In this document: positions 1-8,064 of the stretch, one piece after another
Position numbering within the stretch: the first letter of the stretch is position 1
How the letters are laid out: every line of letters starts with the position of its first letter
Source of the DNA: an uncultured Elusimicrobia bacterium
GTDB lineage: Bacteria; Elusimicrobiota; Elusimicrobia; UBA1565; UBA9628
DNA length: 64,000 nucleotides
NCBI GenBank assembly: GCA_964537395.1
Contig: CAZIBN010000007.1
Span: 2,843 to 66,842, forward strand
Direction of reading: 5' to 3'
Position numbers and translations under genes: made by a program
Notes under the pieces: model-generated
Told to the model about the DNA's origin: nothing
What the model saw: the letters and a program-made list of their open reading frames with translations, nothing else
Databases searched by the model: none

Positions 1-589
1 GTTCGCCGCGCGCCTGCGCCGGCTCTGCGCCCGCGACGGCCGCGGGCCCGGGTCGATCTGGGAGGGCGACCTCATCGATGCGCCCCTGCCGAAGGGGAAA
101 TACGATCTGATCTTCGCGCGCTGGGTGTTCCTGTTCCTGCCCGAGCCCGAGAAGCATCTGCGCAAGCTGGCGCGCGCGCTCAAGCCTGGCGGGCGCATCG
201 CGATCCAGGATTATCACCGTGCCACGATGGCTCTGTATCCGAAGCCGAAGGATTGGGACGCGCTGATGGCCTCCGACCAGCTCTTCTTTAAGACGCAGGG
301 GGGCGACGCGAGCATCGGCGGGCGCCTGCCCGCGCTGTACAAGCGCGCCGGTCTCATCCCGACCGAGGCTCGCCCGAATCTCAAATCCGGCTTCCCCGGC
401 TCCGCCGTCTGGACCTGGGCGTCGTGGTACTTCCTTGGTGTGATGCCGCGTTTAGGGAAGCTCCGGCCCTTCACGCCGGGCGCGGCGCGGCGAACCTCCG
501 CCGCCTGGCGCGCGGCCGCGCGCCGCCCCGAAAGCCTGTTCATCGCGCCCTGCGTCCTCGACTGCGTCGCGCGCAAGCCGCGGAAATGA
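1..589 (+). CDS. class I SAM-dependent methyltransferase, C-terminal part (5' end lies outside the window)
   Basis: Open in frame from the window edge. Sequence DLIFARWVFLFLPEPEKHL...LKPGGRIAIQDYH resembles the MTase motif II/III region. The stop TGA at 587-589 overlaps the next ATG (ATGA). Confidence 0.55.
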   Translation, partial: FAARLRRLCARDGRGPGSIWEGDLIDAPLPKGKYDLIFARWVFLFLPEPEKHLRKLARALKPGGRIAIQDYHRATMALYPKPKDWDALMASDQLFFKTQGGDASIGGRLPALYKRAGLIPTEARPNLKSGFPGSAVWTWASWYFLGVMPRLGKLRPFTPGAARRTSAAWRAAARRPESLFIAPCVLDCVARKPRK

Positions 590-1515
590 TCGAGAGCTGG
601 ATCGCCGTCTCGACGGCGTACCTGAGCTCGCAGAAGGCGAAGGACAGCCTCGCCCTCGATCCGTATTGGCCGAAGTGGGACTCTCCCTGGTGGCACATGA
701 CCTTGCTGTGGGAGCTCGGCCGCGCCGACGCCATCCCGCAGGAGGCGGCGGAGGCGATGCTCGCCGCCATCGAGTCGAAGTATGTCCGTTTTTTCCCGAA
801 CCCGCGCGAGCCCATGCCGCCCGGGAAGGACTATCACCGCGACGGCCTGTGCCACTGCGCCCTCGGCAACATGTATCAGACCTTGGCGGCCTGCGGCCTC
901 GACCTCGACGCGCGCGCGCCGTGGATGAGGGCGTGGTTCCTCCATTATCAGCTGCCCGACGGCGGGCTGAACTGCGATGAGAAGGCGTATGAGAAGGGCG
1001 GCGCGTCCTCGGTTCAGTCCACCTTGCCCGCGCTCGAGGCGGTGCTCGCCGCGGGGCGGCCGTTGACCCCGATCGAGGAGCATTTCGTGGACCGCGGCGC
1101 CGAGTACCTTCTTGAAAGACGGTTGGCCTTCCGGCTGCGGGACGGGCAATTGATGGATCCCGATTTTCTCGAGATCGGATTTCCGCGCTACTACGATTAC
1201 GATATCTTAAGAGGCCTCGCGTTCATCGCCGACTGGGCGCGCCTGCGTAAACGTCGCGTTCAGCGTAGTGCCGTGGGCTGGGTCATCGACTCGTTCGATG
1301 ACCGGTTTCCGGATGGGCGCATCAAAGTCGAAAAGCCGGGCCTCATCTCCGTGGAAAACACTTTGCTGTTCGATAAATCGGGAAACACGGTCCGAGGCCC
1401 GGCGACCTCGTTCCCGCTATTGGATTCCGTCCGAAAGCCGGGTACGATCTCCGAGATTATGACCCGCTCCTGGGCCGAGACGCGCAAGGTTCTGGAATCA
1501 CGCCTTGAGGGGTAG
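586..1515 (+). CDS. hypothetical Trp-rich protein (about 309 aa), family not recognised
   Basis: ORF 424..1515. The ATG at 586 (MIESWIAV...) overlaps the upstream stop by 4 nt, suggesting translational coupling with the MTase. No recognisable motif (DPYWPKWDSPWWHMTLLWELG). Confidence 0.5.
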   Translation: MIESWIAVSTAYLSSQKAKDSLALDPYWPKWDSPWWHMTLLWELGRADAIPQEAAEAMLAAIESKYVRFFPNPREPMPPGKDYHRDGLCHCALGNMYQTLAACGLDLDARAPWMRAWFLHYQLPDGGLNCDEKAYEKGGASSVQSTLPALEAVLAAGRPLTPIEEHFVDRGAEYLLERRLAFRLRDGQLMDPDFLEIGFPRYYDYDILRGLAFIADWARLRKRRVQRSAVGWVIDSFDDRFPDGRIKVEKPGLISVENTLLFDKSGNTVRGPATSFPLLDSVRKPGTISEIMTRSWAETRKVLESRLEG

Positions 1516-1586
1516 GTCCAACGCTCTGAGCAGGGGGTCCGAACGACCCTGGGAGATGACCGGGTCTTTGGGTTATGCTGATGAGG

Positions 1587-3401
1587 ATGCGAAAGGTATT
1601 CGTCGCCGTGATTTGCGGAAGCCTGTTTGTCGGCTCCGCGCCCACTCAAGCGTTCGCCCAGGCGCGCATCGTCCTCCCAGCGAATACTCGATCCGTTGCC
1701 GTTCCAAACTTCGTCCCGTCACTCCCAAGTATCAACGGCTCGTCGCTCCTCTCGAATATCTCCGGTTTGTCGTTAACTCCGTCCATATCGTTAGCTCCGT
1801 CGATTGCGCCGTCGATCAATACCCCATCCGTTGCCGTTTCCGCCGTAGCTACCCTGCAGCCGGCGATCACGCCCGTCCTCTCCATGAGAACGCCGGCCCC
1901 CCACGCAAACCCCCTCCTTCCTCAAGCCCTCCTCTCCCAGGCCGCCGCCCGTCTCACCGCCGCCTCTGCGCCGGACAAGCCGGTCCTGGACGGCAAGAAG
2001 ACGGGGGACGAGGTTTTCTACGGCGAGACCCCGCGTGCTCCCTCGGACGAAGCCCCCGTCCCCGGCAAGCTCTCCCATACGCCGTCGCTTTCCCCGTCCG
2101 CTCCCGCCGCCGTCCCCGCGAAGAAGGAGCCCCTCATCGCCCGCTGGAAATCCTCCATGACTAACGGCTCCGGCCCCCTCGTCATCGCGGCCTTCGCCTG
2201 GAACTTCCTCACGATCGCCGCCTACTCGATCATCGGCCCCGCCCGCGGCGCCCTCCTGATGACGAAATTCGGCCCGGACACCTTGCCCTGGGTCTACCTG
2301 GCCAGCGCCGCGCTGACCGGCGCCGTCGTCTTCGTCTATAGCCGCTTCTCCCATGCTCCGCGCAAGCTGTTGATCGGCGGCTCCCTGGCCATGCTCGCGG
2401 TCACCTTGGTCGCCGGCGCGTTCGCCGTGTCCGCCACGGCGCTGCCGTCCGTCGCGTTCGGCTATTTCCTGTGGACCGACGTGTTCGGCATCATGTCCGC
2501 GACTTTGTTCTGGACCTACGCGAACGACGTGTTCACGCGCGACGAGTCCAAGCGCGTGTTCGGCCTCCTCGCCGCCGGCGCGCCCCTCGGCTCGATCGCG
2601 GGCGCCTTCCTGATGAAGATGGTCGTGGGCTCGATGGGGCCGATCCCGATGCTGATGGTCGCGGCGGGCATTTTCGCGGCGGTGCTCCCGATCTTCTTCT
2701 TCATGGAGAGCCGCTCCAAAGAGCGCGGCGCCAAGCCCGCCCCCGCTTCGACGGCCGCCGCGGCCGTGCCCGAGACGGGGATCCTCAAGACCATCCTGGC
2801 CTCGCCGTTCCTGATCTTCCTGACCGTCGTCGTCGCCCTCGAGCGCCTGGTCCCCGACATCACCAACTATCTGTACAGCGTCGCGGCGTCCGCCGCCTAC
2901 GCGGGCGACCCGAAAGGCATGGCCCAGATGTTCGCCAACGTGAACTTCTACACGAGCATCGCCTCGTTCACCGCGAGCAGCCTTCTCGTCGGGCTGACCT
3001 TGCGCAAGATCGGCACCGGCGGCAGCCTGATGACGGCCGGGCTCGTGAACCTGGCCCTGTTCGCGCTGTACCCCTTCATGCCCACGCTCGGCGTCGCGGC
3101 GCTGTTCTTCGGCCTCGACGGCGTGACGCGCTACACCTGGTTCAAGACCGCGAAGGAGTCCACCTACGCGGCGACCGACCGCGACACGATCTACCGCGTG
3201 AAGGCCTTCATCGAGATGTTCGTCTACCGCTTCGCCCGCGGCCTCGCCGGCCTGCTCCTCCTCGGCGTGGCGTGGCTTCAGGGCGGCCCGACCGGCGCGG
3301 CCTTGCTCGGCATACCGCTCGCGCTGCTGTGGCTGTACGCCTCCTGGCGCATGGGCCGCGAGCACAAGAAGCTCGAAGCCGCGAACGAAGCGAAGAAGTA
3401 G
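1587..3401 (+). CDS. TLC/NTT-family nucleotide transporter (ATP:ADP antiporter family) with a roughly 190-aa N-terminal signal peptide plus Pro/Ser/Ile/Ala-rich extension
   Basis: The C-terminal ~410 aa is polytopic and contains LFWTYANDVFTRDESKRVFGLLAAG, matching the TLC signature of Rickettsia Tlc1 ([24 protein letters not shown]). There are three in-frame ATGs at 1575, 1581 and 1587; a TATGCT hexamer lies 7 nt upstream of 1587. An alternative internal start (M at 2157) would remove the extension. Confidence 0.65.
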   Translation: MRKVFVAVICGSLFVGSAPTQAFAQARIVLPANTRSVAVPNFVPSLPSINGSSLLSNISGLSLTPSISLAPSIAPSINTPSVAVSAVATLQPAITPVLSMRTPAPHANPLLPQALLSQAAARLTAASAPDKPVLDGKKTGDEVFYGETPRAPSDEAPVPGKLSHTPSLSPSAPAAVPAKKEPLIARWKSSMTNGSGPLVIAAFAWNFLTIAAYSIIGPARGALLMTKFGPDTLPWVYLASAALTGAVVFVYSRFSHAPRKLLIGGSLAMLAVTLVAGAFAVSATALPSVAFGYFLWTDVFGIMSATLFWTYANDVFTRDESKRVFGLLAAGAPLGSIAGAFLMKMVVGSMGPIPMLMVAAGIFAAVLPIFFFMESRSKERGAKPAPASTAAAAVPETGILKTILASPFLIFLTVVVALERLVPDITNYLYSVAASAAYAGDPKGMAQMFANVNFYTSIASFTASSLLVGLTLRKIGTGGSLMTAGLVNLALFALYPFMPTLGVAALFFGLDGVTRYTWFKTAKESTYAATDRDTIYRVKAFIEMFVYRFARGLAGLLLLGVAWLQGGPTGAALLGIPLALLWLYASWRMGREHKKLEAANEAKK

Positions 3402-3468
3402 GTGTCAGGCCTACCGGTAGTTACAGTATTGAAGCGGCCAAACTGTAATTACCGGTAGGCCTGACACC
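3401..3468. repeat. large near-perfect palindrome (about 26-bp stem, 16-nt loop) with termini GGTGTCAGGC / GCCTGACACC
   Basis: GGTGTCAGGCCTACCGGTAGTTACAG..CTGTAATTACCGGTAGGCCTGACACC lies directly after the NTT stop. There is no T-tract. It shares outer arms with the element at 15917-16001. Confidence 0.6.
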
Positions 3469-3510
3469 ATGAATGGCTGAAGAAGTGGTATCATATTCGT
3501 ATAAACGAAT

Positions 3511-3846
3511 ATGAATGAGCTTCTGTTCAAGGCCTTCGCCGATCCGACGCGCCTGCGCCTCCTGGGCCTTTTGTCGGGACGAGAGGTGTGCGTCTGCGAT
3601 CTTATGGCCGTCTTGGGCGCGCCGCAGTCCAAGGTCTCGCAGCATCTGGCGTTCCTTCGTTCCGCGGGGCTTGTCGTTTTCCGTCAGGAGGGAAAATGGC
3701 GGCATTACGCGTTGGCCAAGCCCGCGGGCCGCGTGCACGCCCGCCTGGTGGGCTGCCTCGAGGAGTGCTTTTCCGAGATTGGCGACTTGAAGCTCGACCG
3801 TGCGAAGCTCAGGAAGATACTGCGCGCCAAGGAGAAGTGCTCATGA
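3511..3846 (+). CDS. arsR: ArsR/SmtB-family metalloregulator
   Basis: wHTH motif LFKAFADPTRLRLLGLL...EVCVCDL...SQHLAFLRSAGLV. It is first in an arsR-arsC-acr3 arrangement. A TATAAA hexamer lies 5 nt upstream of the ATG. Confidence 0.85.
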   Translation: MNELLFKAFADPTRLRLLGLLSGREVCVCDLMAVLGAPQSKVSQHLAFLRSAGLVVFRQEGKWRHYALAKPAGRVHARLVGCLEECFSEIGDLKLDRAKLRKILRAKEKCS

Positions 3847-4253
3847 ATCGCCTGCCGACCGTCCTTTTTGTGTGCATCGAGAACTCCTGCCGGTCCCAGA
3901 TGGCCGAGGGCTTCGCCCGGCGCCACGGCGCGGGAAAGGTCGCGGCCTGGAGCTCGGGCTCGCGGCCCAGCGGAAAGGTCAACGAGACGGCGATCGCGCT
4001 CATGGAGGAGAAGGGCGTGGACATGTCCTCGCACCGCTCCAAGGGCCTGGCCGAGCTCCCGGCCCAGAAGTGGGACTATGTGATCACCATGGGCTGCGGC
4101 GACGCCTGCCCCTTCGTGCCCTCGCGGGGCAAGGAGGACTGGGCGATCCCCGATCCCAAGCATCTGTCCCCCGATGAGTTCCGCAAGGTCCGCGACCTGG
4201 TCGAGAGCAAGGTCAAGGATCTCATCGCGCGGGCCGTCAAGGCGGGCGCATGA
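3843..4253 (+). CDS. arsC: arsenate reductase, LMW-PTP/thioredoxin-coupled type
   Basis: Carries the CX5R P-loop ([17 protein letters not shown]). The ATG at 3843 overlaps the arsR stop (ATGA). Confidence 0.85.
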
Positions 4254-5281
4254 CCGGCGCCAAGCTGTCGTTTCTGGACCGATACCTCACGGGCTGGATC
4301 TTCGGTGCGATGGCTTTGGGCGTGGGGCTGGGCTATTTCCTTCCGGGGGTGCCGGCTTTCGTCAATCGCTTCCAGATCGGGACGACGAACATCCCGATCG
4401 CGATCGGCCTCATCCTGATGATGTATCCGCCGCTGGCCAAGGTGCGCTATGAGGAGCTCGGCGAGGTGTTCCGGGATAAGAAGGTCCTGACGCTCTCTCT
4501 CGTGCAGAACTGGTTCGTCGGCCCCGTCCTGATGTTCGTCCTGGCCGTGGTTTTTCTGCGCGGCTATCCCGAATACATGGTGGGCCTGATCATGATCGGC
4601 CTGGCGCGCTGCATCGCCATGGTCATCGTCTGGAACGAGCTCGCCGAGGGAGACAGCCAATACGCGGCGGGGCTTGTGGCCTTGAACAGCGTGTTCCAGG
4701 TCCTCTTCTACAGCCTCTACGCCTGGTTCTTCATCACGATATTGCTTCCGATGGTCGGGCAGTCCGGCTCCGTGGTCGACGTCGGCGTCGGAGACATCGC
4801 ACGGAGCGTGTTCATCTATCTGGGCGTTCCTTTCCTGGCCGGGATGGCGACGCGGTGGGCGCTGCTGCGTTCGAAGGGGAAAGAGTGGTACGAGTCCGTC
4901 TTCATCCCGCGCGTCAGCCCGCTGACCTTGCTGTCTCTGCTCTTCACCATCGTGGTCATGTTCAGCCTCAAGGGCAAGCTCATCGTGAGCCTTCCCCTTG
5001 ATGTCCTGCGCATCGCGCTGCCGCTTCTGATCTATTTCGCGGTGATGTTCCTCCTCAGCTTCTGGATGGGGCGCAAGGCGGGGGCGGATTACTCAAGGAC
5101 GGCGACCCTCGCTTTCACCGCCGCCGGCAACAATTTCGAGCTGGCCATCGCTGTGGCCGTGGCCGTGTTCGGCATCGACTCCGGGCAGGCCTTCGCCGCG
5201 GTCATAGGCCCGCTGGTCGAGGTGCCGGCCCTCATCCTGCTGGTGGACGCATCCTTGTTCTTTAAAAAACGTTTCTTCTGA
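4250..5281 (+). CDS. acr3: ACR3-family arsenite efflux permease
   Basis: 10-TM protein, [22 protein letters not shown]..., typical ACR3 length of 343 aa. The ATG overlaps the arsC stop. Confidence 0.85.
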
Positions 5282-6005: not shown

Positions 6006-6404
6006 CTATAAACGCGCGGACCAGCTGTTCGGGTCGAGCATCTCCCGGACCATCGTCACGAGGGCATCCATGTCCATCGGCTTGCGGAGGAAGCGCACGC
6101 GCGGCTCGGGGGGGATCTGGCTGGCGAAGCGCACGGCCTCCGTGCCGCTGATGAACAGCACCGGGAGCAGATTCGTTTCCTGCCGGGCGCGCAGGTCGGC
6201 GAGCAGCTGGACGCCGGTCTTGCGCGGCATCTGATAGTCGAGGATCGCGAGATCGGGATTCTCCTCGAGCGCGATGCGTTCGGCGGCCAACGGGTCGTGG
6301 CAGACGATGACGTCGTGGCCCTCGCCCGCGAGGCATTCCCGCAGGACTGCGGTCAGGGCCTCTTCATCGTCGACCACGAGTATCTTTGCCATCAGGTAGA
6401 GCAT
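6006..6404 (-). CDS. single-domain response regulator (CheY-like receiver)
   Basis: KILVVDDEEALTAVLRECLAGEGHDV...LAILDYQMPRKTG. An SD-like AAGAGG lies 5 nt upstream of the ATG at 6404. The ORF track extends to 6626, but that extension has no SD. Confidence 0.75.
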   Translation of the reverse strand: MLYLMAKILVVDDEEALTAVLRECLAGEGHDVIVCHDPLAAERIALEENPDLAILDYQMPRKTGVQLLADLRARQETNLLPVLFISGTEAVRFASQIPPEPRVRFLRKPMDMDALVTMVREMLDPNSWSARL

Positions 6405-6486
6405 AAAGACCTCTTGCGGCGCCGTCAAGTGCAGTGTGACCATACCGTGCTTGCGGGCACGCCTGGCGAGGGGTACACTATGAAGC

Positions 6487-8064
6487 GTGAAATTCCCCGT
6501 GCCGAGCGGCGAATCCGGATTCCTCGAATCGATCATCGATACGGTGGACGACCCTGTTTTCGTCAAGAACCGCGACCATCGCTGGGTGCTTTTCAACCAG
6601 GCGTTCGTCGTCCTTCTCGGGCACACGCGCGAGCAGCTCCTGGGAAAGTCGGATTACGATTTCTTCCCGAAGGCCCAGGCCGATGTGTTCCGGAGGCAGG
6701 ACGAGCTCGTCTTCGAGACGGGCCGTGAGAACTCCAATGAGGAGACTTTGACCGACGCGCAGGGGATGACCCATGTGCTGGTCACCAGGAAGAACCTTTG
6801 GACCTCGCCGGGCGGAGAGAAATACCTTGTTGGCGTGATCCGGGACATCACCGCGCTCGTTGGCGCGGCCGATGACGCCAAGCTGAGCAAAGAGCGGCTG
6901 TTCCGCGCGCATAAGCTGGAGACGCTGGGGAATGTGGCCGGCGGCGTGGCGCACGACTTCAATAATCTGCTCACGGCCATACGCGGCAGCGCGGGCCTTC
7001 TGCTCGAGAGCCTTCCGGCCAACCACCCGTCTCGCGTCGAGGCCGAGGAAGTCCTGCGCGCCGCGGAGCATGCCGCGACGCTGACGGCGAGGCTTCTGTC
7101 ATTCAGCCGGCGTCCCGACGGCATGCCGCGGCCCGTGGATCTTGCTGAGATCGTGAAGGGCATGCAAGAGGTGCTCCGGCGGCTGCTGCCCTCCAGCGTG
7201 GCATTGGATCTGGTCCTGCCGGAGAAGCTGGGCTCGGTCCTCGCCGATCCGGGGCTCATCGAGCAGGTGCTGCTTAATCTCGTCGTCAACGCCGGGGAGG
7301 CCCTGCCTAAGGGCGGAAACGTCACGATCGAGCTTGCGGGCGCGCCGAAAGGCGGGGCCGGTGTCGCCGGACCCTGCGTTCGTCTCACCGTGCGCGATGA
7401 CGGGGCCGGGATGACCGAAAAGGTCCGCGCGCGCATCTTCGAGCCGTTCTTCACGACCAAGGAGAGCGGAAGCGGCCTCGGGCTCTCGACGGTCGCTGAG
7501 ACCGTTCGCCGCAACGCGGGGGCCGTCGAGGTCGTCAGCGCGCCGGGCAAAGGCACCTCCTTCCACGTTTACTGGCCGTTGTGCGCGGGCAAGGCCGCGC
7601 CCGTCAAAAAAGCGAGAAGCGGGTCGAAGCCTGGGCAAGGACGCGGGCGGGCTCTCGTCGTCGACGATGACGATGCGGTGCGCCGCTTCCTGGTGCGCTG
7701 CCTGGAGAAGGAGGGCTACGAGGTCCTGTCCGCGAGAGAGCCTGTCGAGGCGCTGCGGATCGGCGATGCCAACGAAGGCCTCTTCGACCTGCTTGTGATC
7801 GACGTCGTGATGCCGCGGATGCGCGGGCCGGAGCTGGCTGCTCGCCTGCGCTTGCGCCAGCGCGAGGCGCGGGTGCTGTTCACCTCGGGCCGGCGTCGCG
7901 AGGATTGCGGCCTTCCCGAAGGCGAGGCGGCCGAATTCCTGGCAAAGCCCTTCTCGGCGAGAGATCTGACCGGGATCGTCAGCGGCGCGCGGCTCGGCGC
8001 AGGCGGTCCATCACGGCGCGCCCGACGCCCCGGTCCGGCACGGTCTCGACGTAAAGCGTCCTGA
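6487..8064 (+). CDS. hybrid sensor histidine kinase (PAS - HisKA - HATPase_c - receiver)
   Basis: H-box LETLGNVAGGVAHDFNNLLTAI, followed by an ATPase G-box (DDGAGMTEKV...GSGLGL) and a C-terminal receiver (ALVVDDDDAVRRF...LLVIDVVMPRMRG). The GTG at 6487 lies 7 nt after a TACACT hexamer. Confidence 0.85.
   Translation: MKFPVPSGESGFLESIIDTVDDPVFVKNRDHRWVLFNQAFVVLLGHTREQLLGKSDYDFFPKAQADVFRRQDELVFETGRENSNEETLTDAQGMTHVLVTRKNLWTSPGGEKYLVGVIRDITALVGAADDAKLSKERLFRAHKLETLGNVAGGVAHDFNNLLTAIRGSAGLLLESLPANHPSRVEAEEVLRAAEHAATLTARLLSFSRRPDGMPRPVDLAEIVKGMQEVLRRLLPSSVALDLVLPEKLGSVLADPGLIEQVLLNLVVNAGEALPKGGNVTIELAGAPKGGAGVAGPCVRLTVRDDGAGMTEKVRARIFEPFFTTKESGSGLGLSTVAETVRRNAGAVEVVSAPGKGTSFHVYWPLCAGKAAPVKKARSGSKPGQGRGRALVVDDDDAVRRFLVRCLEKEGYEVLSAREPVEALRIGDANEGLFDLLVIDVVMPRMRGPELAARLRLRQREARVLFTSGRRREDCGLPEGEAAEFLAKPFSARDLTGIVSGARLGAGGPSRRARRPGPARSRRKAS

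Follow-up and report, generated by a model that had tools for sequence, protein, structure and literature searches.

Gene structure and leader anatomy

The window analyzed here is a 64,000-nucleotide stretch of contig CAZIBN010000007.1 (GenBank assembly GCA_964537395.1) from an uncultured Elusimicrobia bacterium, and the subject of this report is a gene near its 5′ end that encodes a putative nucleotide carrier preceded, in the same frame, by a long signal-peptide-like leader. A first, sequence-only reading of the window had placed the gene at 1575 to 3401. The open reading frame (ORF) with these limits is present on the plus strand (608 amino acids) and contains the signature LFWTYANDVFTRDESKRVFG, but translation likely starts at 1587 rather than at 1575, as judged from an upstream-region alignment of 14 orthologues, in which the orthologous start is the ATG at 1587 (MRKVFVAV...), four codons into the longest ORF. 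Carrier residues are numbered from 1575 throughout; loci are cited by L numbers and homologous proteins by P numbers. Model confidence is given as the predicted local distance difference test (pLDDT), and omega denotes dN/dS. The gene comprises the following features, with transmembrane helices abbreviated TM and the major facilitator superfamily MFS.

1549 to 1579, plus strand: promoter-like element, CTGGGAG (1549 to 1555), 18 nt, TATGCT (1574 to 1579), then 7 nt to the ATG at 1587
1587 to 3401, plus strand: carrier coding sequence, 604 amino acids from the orthologous start (608 in the longest ORF, from 1575)
1587 to 1658, plus strand: signal-peptide-like segment, residues 5 to 28, made up of MRK, a 15-residue hydrophobic stretch, and P(-6) T Q A(-3) F A(-1) before the putative site and Q
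1659 to 1904, plus strand: uncharged spacer rich in Pro, Ser, Ala, Leu, Val, and Ile, residues 29 to 110, of varying length, predicted disordered (pLDDT 32 to 41), omega 0.5 to 0.8 among close orthologues
1905 to 2030, plus strand: conserved helix motif, residues 111 to 152, L..AA.RL.AASAP..P...K..DE.F[SY]G
2031 to 2120, plus strand: second disordered linker, residues 153 to 182, with a P.L.PS motif
2121 to 2171, plus strand: basic juxtamembrane segment, residues 183 to 199, KKEPLIARWKSSMTNGS, with an AlphaFold helix at 187 to 196
2172 to 3398, plus strand: 12-helix MFS/NTT-like core, residues 200 to 608, arranged 6+6 around a central loop (381 to 410), pLDDT 80 to 98
2505 to 2564, plus strand: signature LFWTYANDVFTRDESKRVFG, residues 311 to 330, at the end of TM4 and in the TM4-5 loop, aligning with FWGFANE/Q..T..EAK[RK]FY of NTTs

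The N terminus reads MLMRMRKVFVAVICGSLFVGSAPTQAFA, with the putative cleavage site before QARI, and is followed by about 170 residues dominated by Ala (15%), Pro (15%), Ser (14%), and Leu (11%). Judged by inspection and simple scripts, it has the hallmarks of a substrate of the Sec pathway and signal peptidase I (SPase I), namely a basic n-region (MRK), a short h-region (VFVAVICGSLFVGSA), and a helix breaker with small residues at -3 and -1 (P-T-Q-A-F-A before Q); in the AlphaFold model residues 2 to 20 are helical. The pattern is kept in 23 aligned homologues, 16 further loci, and the enzyme-fused relatives described below, down to 40% identity. Across the family, the hydrophobic stretch is often only 11 to 16 residues long and is followed by P at -6, A, V, or S at -3, A at -1, and Q at +1.

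Residues 30 to 110 of the spacer consist of 19% Ser, 15% Pro, 12% Ala, 11% Leu, 10% Val, and 9% Ile, and only 3 of these 81 residues are charged; the units PSL, PSI, APSI (twice), and TPS (twice) occur among them. Both the signal-peptide-like segment and the low-complexity region of about 170 residues had been recognized at first sight; the repeated units reported there, however, are not tandem at the DNA level. Tandem Repeats Finder detected no DNA repeat under the PSI/APSI units, and the low complexity is therefore compositional. The conserved helix motif is modeled as two short helices (residues 116 to 130 and 137 to 148, pLDDT ~80) and ends in an F-x-G/FDG-type motif, represented in the window protein by DEVFYGE (residues 144 to 150). 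The basic juxtamembrane segment is 88 to 100% identical in most of the closest orthologues and 59 to 82% identical in four.

Leaders of similar layout were also seen on other proteins of a related Elusimicrobiota genome. In L023, a subtilisin-like (S8) protease (2236 to 4782, plus strand) and a truncated ORF (569 to 3, minus strand) both begin with a signal peptide ending in A-x-A before Q, an uncharged linker rich in Ala, Pro, and Ser, and an Ala-rich helix, and the protease also contains ...ARIFDSS. The leader profile matches both ORFs at an E value of ~1e-5, a weak and partly composition-driven similarity.

Evidence for translation of the leader

Along the whole extension GC content peaks at codon position 3 of the carrier frame (GC3, 0.66 to 0.84), at 0.66 to 0.70 in the first 300 nt compared to 0.96 in the core (range 0.92 to 1.0). 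In 17 orthologous loci the frame is open for 169 to 197 codons upstream of helix 1 despite varying linker length, and an in-frame stop lies just 5′ of the signal-peptide Met in every one of them that does not run off its contig end. Among the closest orthologues (core 93% identical), dN/dS is 0.3 to 0.6 in the signal peptide and linker segments versus 0.11 in the core; omega is below 1 in each leader segment among close pairs and ~0.28 in the conserved helix motif. Read together, these coding statistics indicate a leader that is translated in frame and under purifying selection, evolving fast relative to the core.

The upstream sequences of 16 orthologous loci were inspected, and an alignment of 14 sequences was built. 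All 14 aligned loci contain the element CTGGGAG, ~18 nt, TAyyCT, 7 nt, and ATG, in which the T/G/G/A and TA...T columns are nearly invariant. No correctly spaced Shine-Dalgarno sequence was found before 1587. A promoter function for the element is proposed from conservation alone, since a sigma-70 consensus scan of the upstream region returned no promoter match; on this basis, the carrier probably has its own promoter and would be translated from a leaderless or nearly leaderless mRNA. Rfam reported no family upstream of or within the carrier gene (sub-threshold microRNA models alone matched the hairpin that follows it) and no riboswitch at the carrier locus.

The core belongs to the NTT lineage

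In the AlphaFold model (mean pLDDT 74.7), residues 200 to 607 form 12 helices, arranged 6+6. Pfam assigns the core to MFS_1 (PF07690) with 39.9 bits (gathering threshold 33.4) and, with a lower score, to TLC (PF03219) with 26.8 bits (gathering threshold 21). The PF03219 match is partial, pairing residues 306 to 480 with positions 161 to 349 of a 491-position profile. Searching all PDB sequences with a 19-sequence core profile returned only two entries at an E value of ≤0.9, Chlamydia pneumoniae NTT1 (9j3n, 1.1e-12) and Arabidopsis NTT1 (9j3j, 6.5e-9), and no MFS protein other than NTTs. Consistent with this, the top five Foldseek matches in the PDB are NTT structures (E values 2e-10 to 4e-7, target-normalized TM-score up to 0.74, 16 to 17% identity), and generic MFS structures start at ~4e-6, about 4 orders of magnitude behind the best NTT. 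About 200 further Foldseek matches in the PDB have E values of ≤0.001 and, among the matches listed, are MFS transporters. Because the sequence matches in the PDB are exclusively NTTs and the best fold matches are NTTs as well, the protein is a true but very distant member of the TLC/NTT (TC 2.A.12) branch of the MFS, and the initial placement in the ATP:ADP antiporter family stands, including its PF03219 match. The orthodox NTT implied by that placement it is not. By sequence, the protein would be an inner-membrane secondary carrier of a deep, Elusimicrobiota-specific branch of the TLC/NTT lineage.

Two motifs are shared with NTTs, FW..AN...E.KR after TM4 and [KR]Y..F...KE..Y...D.......KA.I[DE] between TM10 and TM11. 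Across NTTs, four conserved charged residues matter for transport, which in Arabidopsis NTT1 (AtNTT1) are K155, E245, E385, and K527 (PMC4256464); of these, K155 has been linked to the binding of ADP and K527 to that of ATP (PMC3306366). Some microsporidian members of the family differ at three of these four positions (PMC4256464). An offset of 84 puts K, E, E, and K at positions 71, 161, 301, and 443 of the 9j3j chain, and the mapping from AtNTT1 is validated by the fact that this single offset fits all four residues. Two of them have conservative counterparts in the window protein that are invariant or nearly so among its homologues (E245 to D302 and K527 to R555), and the TM1 Lys of the structure (chain K52) aligns with the invariant R224. 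AtNTT1 and C. pneumoniae NTT1 (PDB 9j3j to 9j3o) thus resemble the window carrier in their 12-helix MFS-type fold, in both signatures, in the predicted cytoplasmic position of both termini, and in a basic residue in TM1, an acidic residue at E245, and a basic residue at K527. They differ from it in core size (~480 to 500 residues versus ~410 here, at 16 to 17% identity), in two of the four critical residues and the invariant residues of TM7 (both detailed below), and in the signal-peptide-like leader that the window carrier possesses; the window carrier, moreover, belongs to a branch of free-living bacteria.

Adenylate kinase and nuclease-like domains in sister proteins

The nearest relatives outside the protein's own clade (E values 1e-107 to 1e-127 with the core profile) have N-terminal extensions of 95 to 490 residues. 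Six of them (P0083, P0219, P0220, P0221, P0081, and P0073) contain a complete adenylate kinase (ADK) between a signal-peptide-like leader and helix 1. These six belong to distinct 90%-identity clusters from independent sources; their ADK domains score 71 to 128 bits in Pfam and 140 to 149 bits against NCBIfam adenylate kinase models and, by inspection, show the P-loop, the ...LDGFPRR motif, and the arginines of a short LID. In two further clusters, P0078 and P0222, an endonuclease/exonuclease/phosphatase (EEP) domain occupies this place instead. The cores of the ADK and EEP proteins match the profile at E values of 1e-112 to 1e-127. Its Pfam score is at about the cutoff (24.8 versus 24.5 bits), and its best NCBIfam similarity, a weak one at 22.9 bits, is to ExeM/NucH extracellular endonucleases.

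In an alignment with the domain-less P0062, the P0222 leader reaches 49% and its junction plus core 79%, and P0222 corresponds to P0062 with an insertion of ~330 residues directly after its ...FFDA motif. This marks the enzyme as a cassette placed behind the F-x-G/FDG-type motif, an insertion point demonstrated solely for the EEP pair P0062/P0222. The leader profile of the window family matches the leader of P0222 (E value 3e-7) and does not match those of the ADK fusions. By analogy, the window protein may represent the form without an enzyme cassette.

Repeated fusion to ADK is a classic hint that a carrier may handle adenine nucleotides. The sequence-only reading had regarded the substrate as beyond inference, but the ADK fusions of the nearest outgroup do give a lead: by analogy with them, the carrier most likely transports an adenine nucleotide or some closely related phosphorylated compound. 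It would work either by exchange or by proton-coupled uptake, modes that sequence does not distinguish.

Neither ADK nor EEP cassettes nor a signal-peptide-like leader are among the NTT architectures catalogued in PMC5381601, and the placement of such a cassette between leader and helix 1 is new among NTT architectures. That catalogue includes NTT-HEAT, NTT-HEAT-cyclic-nucleotide-binding-domain, NTT-S-adenosylmethionine (SAM)-methyltransferase, and 2-oxoglutarate-oxygenase-NTT proteins, which likewise join the NTT-like cores of free-living organisms to accessory modules. The methyltransferase fusions have a parallel at the present locus, where a SAM methyltransferase is a conserved near neighbor of the carrier. 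In contrast to these fusions, the module of the window protein is N-terminal and opens with a signal-peptide-like helix. Diatom NTTs have also gained N-terminal extensions, independently, and these have been interpreted as signal or targeting peptides (PMC5381601, Fig. 3). The diatom extensions route proteins across the extra membranes of secondary plastids, whereas the window host is bacterial and has no such compartments, and conserved motifs lie within the window extension, joined in relatives by enzyme domains.

Taken together, and leaving aside whether the leader is cytoplasmic or exported, membership in the NTT lineage, a real leader, and the lead toward nucleotides form the combination that we favor on balance, with somewhat better than even confidence. 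Several observations weigh against it. The NCBIfam model TIGR00769 (NTP/NDP exchange transporter) gives 30.4 bits, far below its cutoff of 387.2 (all relatives tested score 22 to 81 bits). Conservation fails at two of the four critical positions, where Y241 (in a weakly aligned TM1-2 region) stands for K155 and N431 for E385, and the cavity helix TM7 displays a different invariant set, E423-R424-x-x-P427-D428. The ADK and EEP fusions belong to sister clades and not to the window protein itself, and the leaders of the ADK fusions resemble the window leader in architecture only. Finally, the stable neighbors of the gene, a SAM methyltransferase and a Cys-containing protein, could indicate a different substrate.

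Membrane topology and the side of the leader

In the core, 28 Lys and Arg residues are on the side of the N-terminal flank, central loop, and C-terminal tail, compared to 4 on the opposite side, and the basic juxtamembrane segment contributes four of the residues in the inside count. The same bias is found in 31 relatives, including all fusions (20 to 32 inside versus 2 to 7 outside). NTTs are assumed to have 12 helices with a cytoplasmic N terminus, and the window core is predicted to share this topology, with 12 helices and both termini inside. The extension had been called secretory-type in the sequence-only reading. The leader is real and does look secretory, but this character conflicts with an N-in core, a point that had gone unnoticed. 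No membrane-spanning segment is present between the signal peptide and helix 1 (maximum 19-residue Kyte-Doolittle [KD] hydropathy 1.49). Residues 86 to 104, which give this maximum, were considered as a hidden second membrane segment and rejected; they contain Pro and give way in orthologues to sequence with Lys or Arg. The combination of a textbook signal peptide and an uncharged spacer with an N-in core, and no membrane segment in between, is a new conflict.

As far as a signal-peptide export function is concerned, the downstream topology does not comply, since no membrane segment precedes the N-in helix 1. Standard rules then leave only a cytoplasmic position for the leader. The N-terminal helix might then act as an early membrane-targeting or anchoring element, perhaps useful where the first true membrane helix emerges only after 200 to 500 residues. 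Three features accord with a cytoplasmic leader: the basic stretch ahead of helix 1 is highly conserved, an Arg at +2/+3 is kept, and in the ADK fusions two to three basic residues occur within 15 residues after the putative site. A cytoplasmic leader leaves unexplained the strongly conserved P..A.A-Q motif of SPase I type and the exported-like composition of the spacer, which count against it, as well as the similar leaders of the protease and the second ORF of L023 and the affinity of the EEP domain to extracellular nucleases. A cytoplasmic leader with a targeting or anchoring helix is nonetheless our tentative preference, held at slightly under even confidence; true export and cleavage is possible, if not what we expect, and some other solution is unlikely.

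In its fullest form, export would mean that the leader is a genuine, cleaved Sec signal peptide and that the spacer, the conserved motif, and the enzyme cassette of relatives are periplasmic, tethered, and engaged in processing nucleotides at the importer: the nuclease would yield nucleotides, and ADK would interconvert AMP, ADP, and ATP beside the importer mouth. The canonical SPase I pattern, kept down to 40% identity, speaks for such an arrangement, as do the spacer, which has little charge and a composition typical of exported tethers, the same-style leaders on the subtilisin-like protease and another ORF of a related genome, and the similarity, albeit weak, of the EEP cassette to ExeM/NucH endonucleases. 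Yet the core is N-in in every member, with a very strong charge bias, as in NTTs, and the segment that touches helix 1 is basic and highly conserved. There is no hydrophobic segment for a second crossing, the conserved helix being polar or acidic in P0078, P0062, P0220, and P0221, and in the ADK fusions just 15 to 45 residues separate the kinase from helix 1. Basic residues soon after a signal-peptide cleavage site are unfavorable for Sec export, and the Arg at +2/+3 and the basic residues of the ADK fusions are of this kind. We regard this arrangement as doubtful, and its corollary, in which a working secretion leader would hold a tethered module at the periplasmic surface of the inner membrane (with no enzyme here, ADK or nuclease in the sister proteins), as rather unlikely.

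DsbD-type proteins combine a cleavable signal peptide, a periplasmic N-terminal domain, and a multihelix membrane domain in one polypeptide. The window protein resembles DsbD in having a signal peptide (here signal-peptide-like), a soluble N-terminal module, and a multihelix membrane domain. It differs in the direction of its first core helix, predicted to run from inside to outside, whereas that of DsbD runs from outside to inside.

Conserved upstream genes and a variable arsenic block

The carrier gene is flanked on its 5′ side by two genes in the same orientation.

1 to 589, plus strand: 3′ portion of a class I SAM-methyltransferase gene whose 5′ end lies outside the window
586 to 1515, plus strand: conserved upstream partner, 309 amino acids, all-helical, with invariant CHC and NCD motifs

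The partner ATG overlaps the methyltransferase stop (ATGA). In 14 loci the gene directly before the carrier is this partner; one of them is L004, whose carrier is of the short form and whose partner stop overlaps the carrier start. The methyltransferase gene occupies the second position before the carrier in most orthologous loci. No Pfam or PDB sequence match was obtained for the 309-residue protein, which shows a weak similarity to the C-terminal part of squalene cyclases; its single-sequence structure model had a pLDDT of 51.5 and was not used for a fold search. In the complete genome CP096137.1 (L002, identical to L019), the partner region 6490 to 7589 is split into overlapping ORFs (6490 to 7140 and 7098 to 7589) next to an intact carrier, which suggests a frameshift or a pseudogene. 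ArsM requires Cys residues; the neighboring methyltransferase was considered as ArsM and rejected, its L002 copy being devoid of cysteines.

Downstream of the carrier the following elements are found.

3401 to 3468, plus strand: hairpin with a 27-bp main stem and 30 pairs in total, starting at the last base of the stop codon
3489 to 5281, plus strand: ars unit, consisting of a TATCAT box and palindrome CATATTCG-N4-CGAATATG (3489 to 3513), arsR, arsC, and acr3
3511 to 3846, 3843 to 4253, and 4250 to 5281, all plus strand: arsR, arsC of the low-molecular-weight phosphatase type, and acr3, respectively, directly 3′ of the carrier

The hairpin (dG -54.4 kcal/mol, z = -10.25) has an arm sequence that is unique within the window. 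It is not conserved in orthologous loci, and no U-tract follows it; it is probably the 3′ end or an insulator of a transcription unit. The last three bases of the palindrome are the arsR start codon, and wherever an arsR follows the carrier, it is directly preceded by a conserved TATCAT box and palindrome, as seen in six loci (L007, L008, L012, L014, L019, and L022). From this arrangement the palindrome is likely an ArsR operator on a short-leader transcript.

Within the orthologous clade (core at least 67% identical), the gene order is SAM methyltransferase, 309-residue protein, carrier, a variable block, TauE, and Sua5, the last two on the opposite strand. The window and its nearest relatives have arsR-arsC-acr3 as this block, L002/L019, L009, L014, L016, and L022 have arsR-arsC (some of them cut by a contig end), and L013 and L015 have arsC alone. 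A MIP aquaglyceroporin replaces Acr3 in the arsC-MIP block of L001 and the arsR-arsC-MIP block of L004, and no block at all lies between carrier and TauE in L010 and L020. The position behaves like an insertion hot spot. The ars genes, with their own operator, varying content, and an intervening hairpin, are thus a separately regulated variable cassette with a tendency to occupy this position. When the carrier was examined as a component of an ars operon, the outcome was negative, the block being absent, reduced, or altered in several orthologous loci, with no match to an ars permease model; comparisons of synteny, operator, and NCBIfam models gave no evidence of a functional link between carrier and ars genes. 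The adjacency to an arsenic operon seen in the first reading is therefore real, but the two are neighbors and not operon partners.

Between TauE and Sua5 we also noted, by eye, a response-regulator receiver protein (6006 to 6626, minus strand) and a PAS/histidine-kinase/receiver hybrid (6487 to 8064, plus strand).

This context invites the alternative that the protein is an MFS carrier for a non-nucleotide substrate, tied to the upstream pair or to arsenic (as an ArsJ/ArsK-like exporter of an organoarsenical or arseno-metabolite), and resembles NTTs through shared ancestry only. The order of methyltransferase, 309-residue protein, and carrier, kept in most orthologous loci, would suit it, as would the overlapping 309-residue protein gene before the short paralogue of L004, the presence of arsC and/or arsR after the carrier in most orthologous loci and L004, the higher Pfam score of MFS_1 than of TLC, and TM7 cavity residues unlike those of NTTs. 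It is difficult to reconcile, however, with a PDB sequence search that gives NTTs and no other MFS protein at an E value of ≤1, and with NCBIfam, where TIGR00769 is the only model to match the carrier and no ars transporter model does so. Nor do the proposed partners fit: an ars block is missing from some loci, differs among others, and is served by an operator of its own, and the methyltransferase, judged from its cysteine-free L002 copy, is not ArsM-like. The ADK and EEP fusions of the sister clades favor nucleotides, and the paralogues of L023, L024, and L026, 57 to 59% identical, are free of any of this gene context. We consider a non-nucleotide substrate improbable, though well worth keeping in view.

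Downstream starts in public gene models

The leader is missing from a number of public gene models. In NCBI annotations P0011, P0017, P0020, P0029, and P0031, the protein begins 100 to 115 codons past the conserved signal-peptide Met (483 to 501 amino acids), and some metagenome gene calls consist of the 410-residue core alone. In the complete genome CP096137.1, the NCBI gene model has 494 amino acids, a downstream start call given that the frame runs for 608 amino acids. With the annotations of several orthologues starting downstream, the leader is systematically missing from databases.

Genuinely short forms exist as well. Paralogues of 57 to 59% identity in L004, L024, and L026 are closed by an in-frame stop 14 to 28 codons ahead of helix 1; the gene that precedes the carrier in L004 reaches 8 nt into the start of the carrier gene. 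Long and short forms occur together on one contig (L015, L023). In L016 (2 to 2104, plus strand), the signal peptide and Pro/Ser spacer are swapped in frame for an unrelated sequence that reaches the contig end, and the conserved helix/F-x-G motif and the core are kept; this may be a rearrangement or an assembly chimera.

Could the extension lie outside the working protein, with a start near residue 104 or 195 and the open frame a GC-rich accident or a minor isoform? The shorter gene calls of orthologues, the lower GC3 of the first 300 nt, the short paralogues, and the replaced signal peptide and spacer of L016 (its motif kept) would accord with such a start. Against it stand a frame kept through variable linkers in 17 loci, with a stop just before the signal-peptide Met, omega values below 1 in all leader segments of close pairs, signal-peptide features conserved to 40% identity, and a promoter-like element directly before that Met. 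The internal Met codons, moreover, are not conserved (residue 195 is M, R, V, A, or L across aligned homologues), neither candidate start, at residue 104 or 195, has a spaced Shine-Dalgarno sequence, and the full 608-residue frame is present in CP096137.1. Such a start is very improbable.

Host and distribution

Every relative with at least 40% identity belongs to a metagenome-assembled genome of Elusimicrobiota, in most cases obtained from groundwater or sediment. One orthologue is on the complete 3.80-Mb chromosome CP096137.1, a size that fits a free-living organism. A profile search of 1.84 billion cluster representatives retrieved 13,015 relatives at an E value of ≤1e-3 and 1,966 at ≤1e-30, most of them 410 to 470 residues long. 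Relatives at 21 to 33% identity are found in Gemmatimonadota, Acidobacteriota, Myxococcota, Betaproteobacteria, and others, and proteins fused to HEAT or cyclic-nucleotide-binding domains (from Pfam on P0147) are among the more distant relatives (E values 1e-23 to 1e-5).

NTT-domain proteins are widespread in free-living bacteria, often with HEAT repeats or cyclic-nucleotide-binding domains (PMC5381601); Major, Embley & Williams reported none in Elusimicrobia in 2017 (PMC5381601). In Elusimicrobiota, canonical ATP/ADP antiporters are known only from the endosymbiotic Endomicrobiellum, which acquired them horizontally from Alphaproteobacteria and in which the critical residues are kept (PMC11257099). 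These antiporters are a lineage different from that of the window carrier. The sequence-only reading had found an NTT-family protein in an apparently free-living host worthy of remark. A free-living host fits the data, but with so many relatives such a setting is expected and not unusual.

That the protein is a classical ATP/ADP antiporter for energy parasitism in a host-dependent organism is hardly credible: some homologues bear the JGI label “AAA family ATP:ADP antiporter” and NTT structures are the best matches, but identity to solved NTTs is only 16 to 17%, TIGR00769 gives 30 versus 387 bits, the K155 and E385 equivalents are lost, relatives live in groundwater and sediment with genomes of ~3.8 Mb, the canonical NTTs of the phylum are the separate, horizontally acquired Endomicrobiellum lineage (PMC11257099), and NTT-domain proteins are common in free-living bacteria (PMC5381601).

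Implications

NTT-type carriers are textbook markers of energy parasitism, and their homologues in free-living organisms are almost uncharted. The present analysis corrects gene models, several public annotations losing ~100 to 200 residues of the carrier. The conflict between leader and topology contradicts standard topology rules, and its resolution would be either a new use of a signal-peptide-like helix or a new topology. If the leader is exported, it needs a topology or insertion route not described for the MFS. Candidates are an inverted first helix, some unconventional way of crossing the membrane, or a targeting leader that is cleaved and then lets its uncharged tail slip back. An exported module, if true, would tie uptake directly to the processing of extracellular nucleotides in free-living bacteria. 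On whichever side the leader lies, the natural fusions to ADK and to a nuclease/phosphatase provide a testable hypothesis, that carriers of this family serve in the scavenging or exchange of environmental adenine nucleotides.

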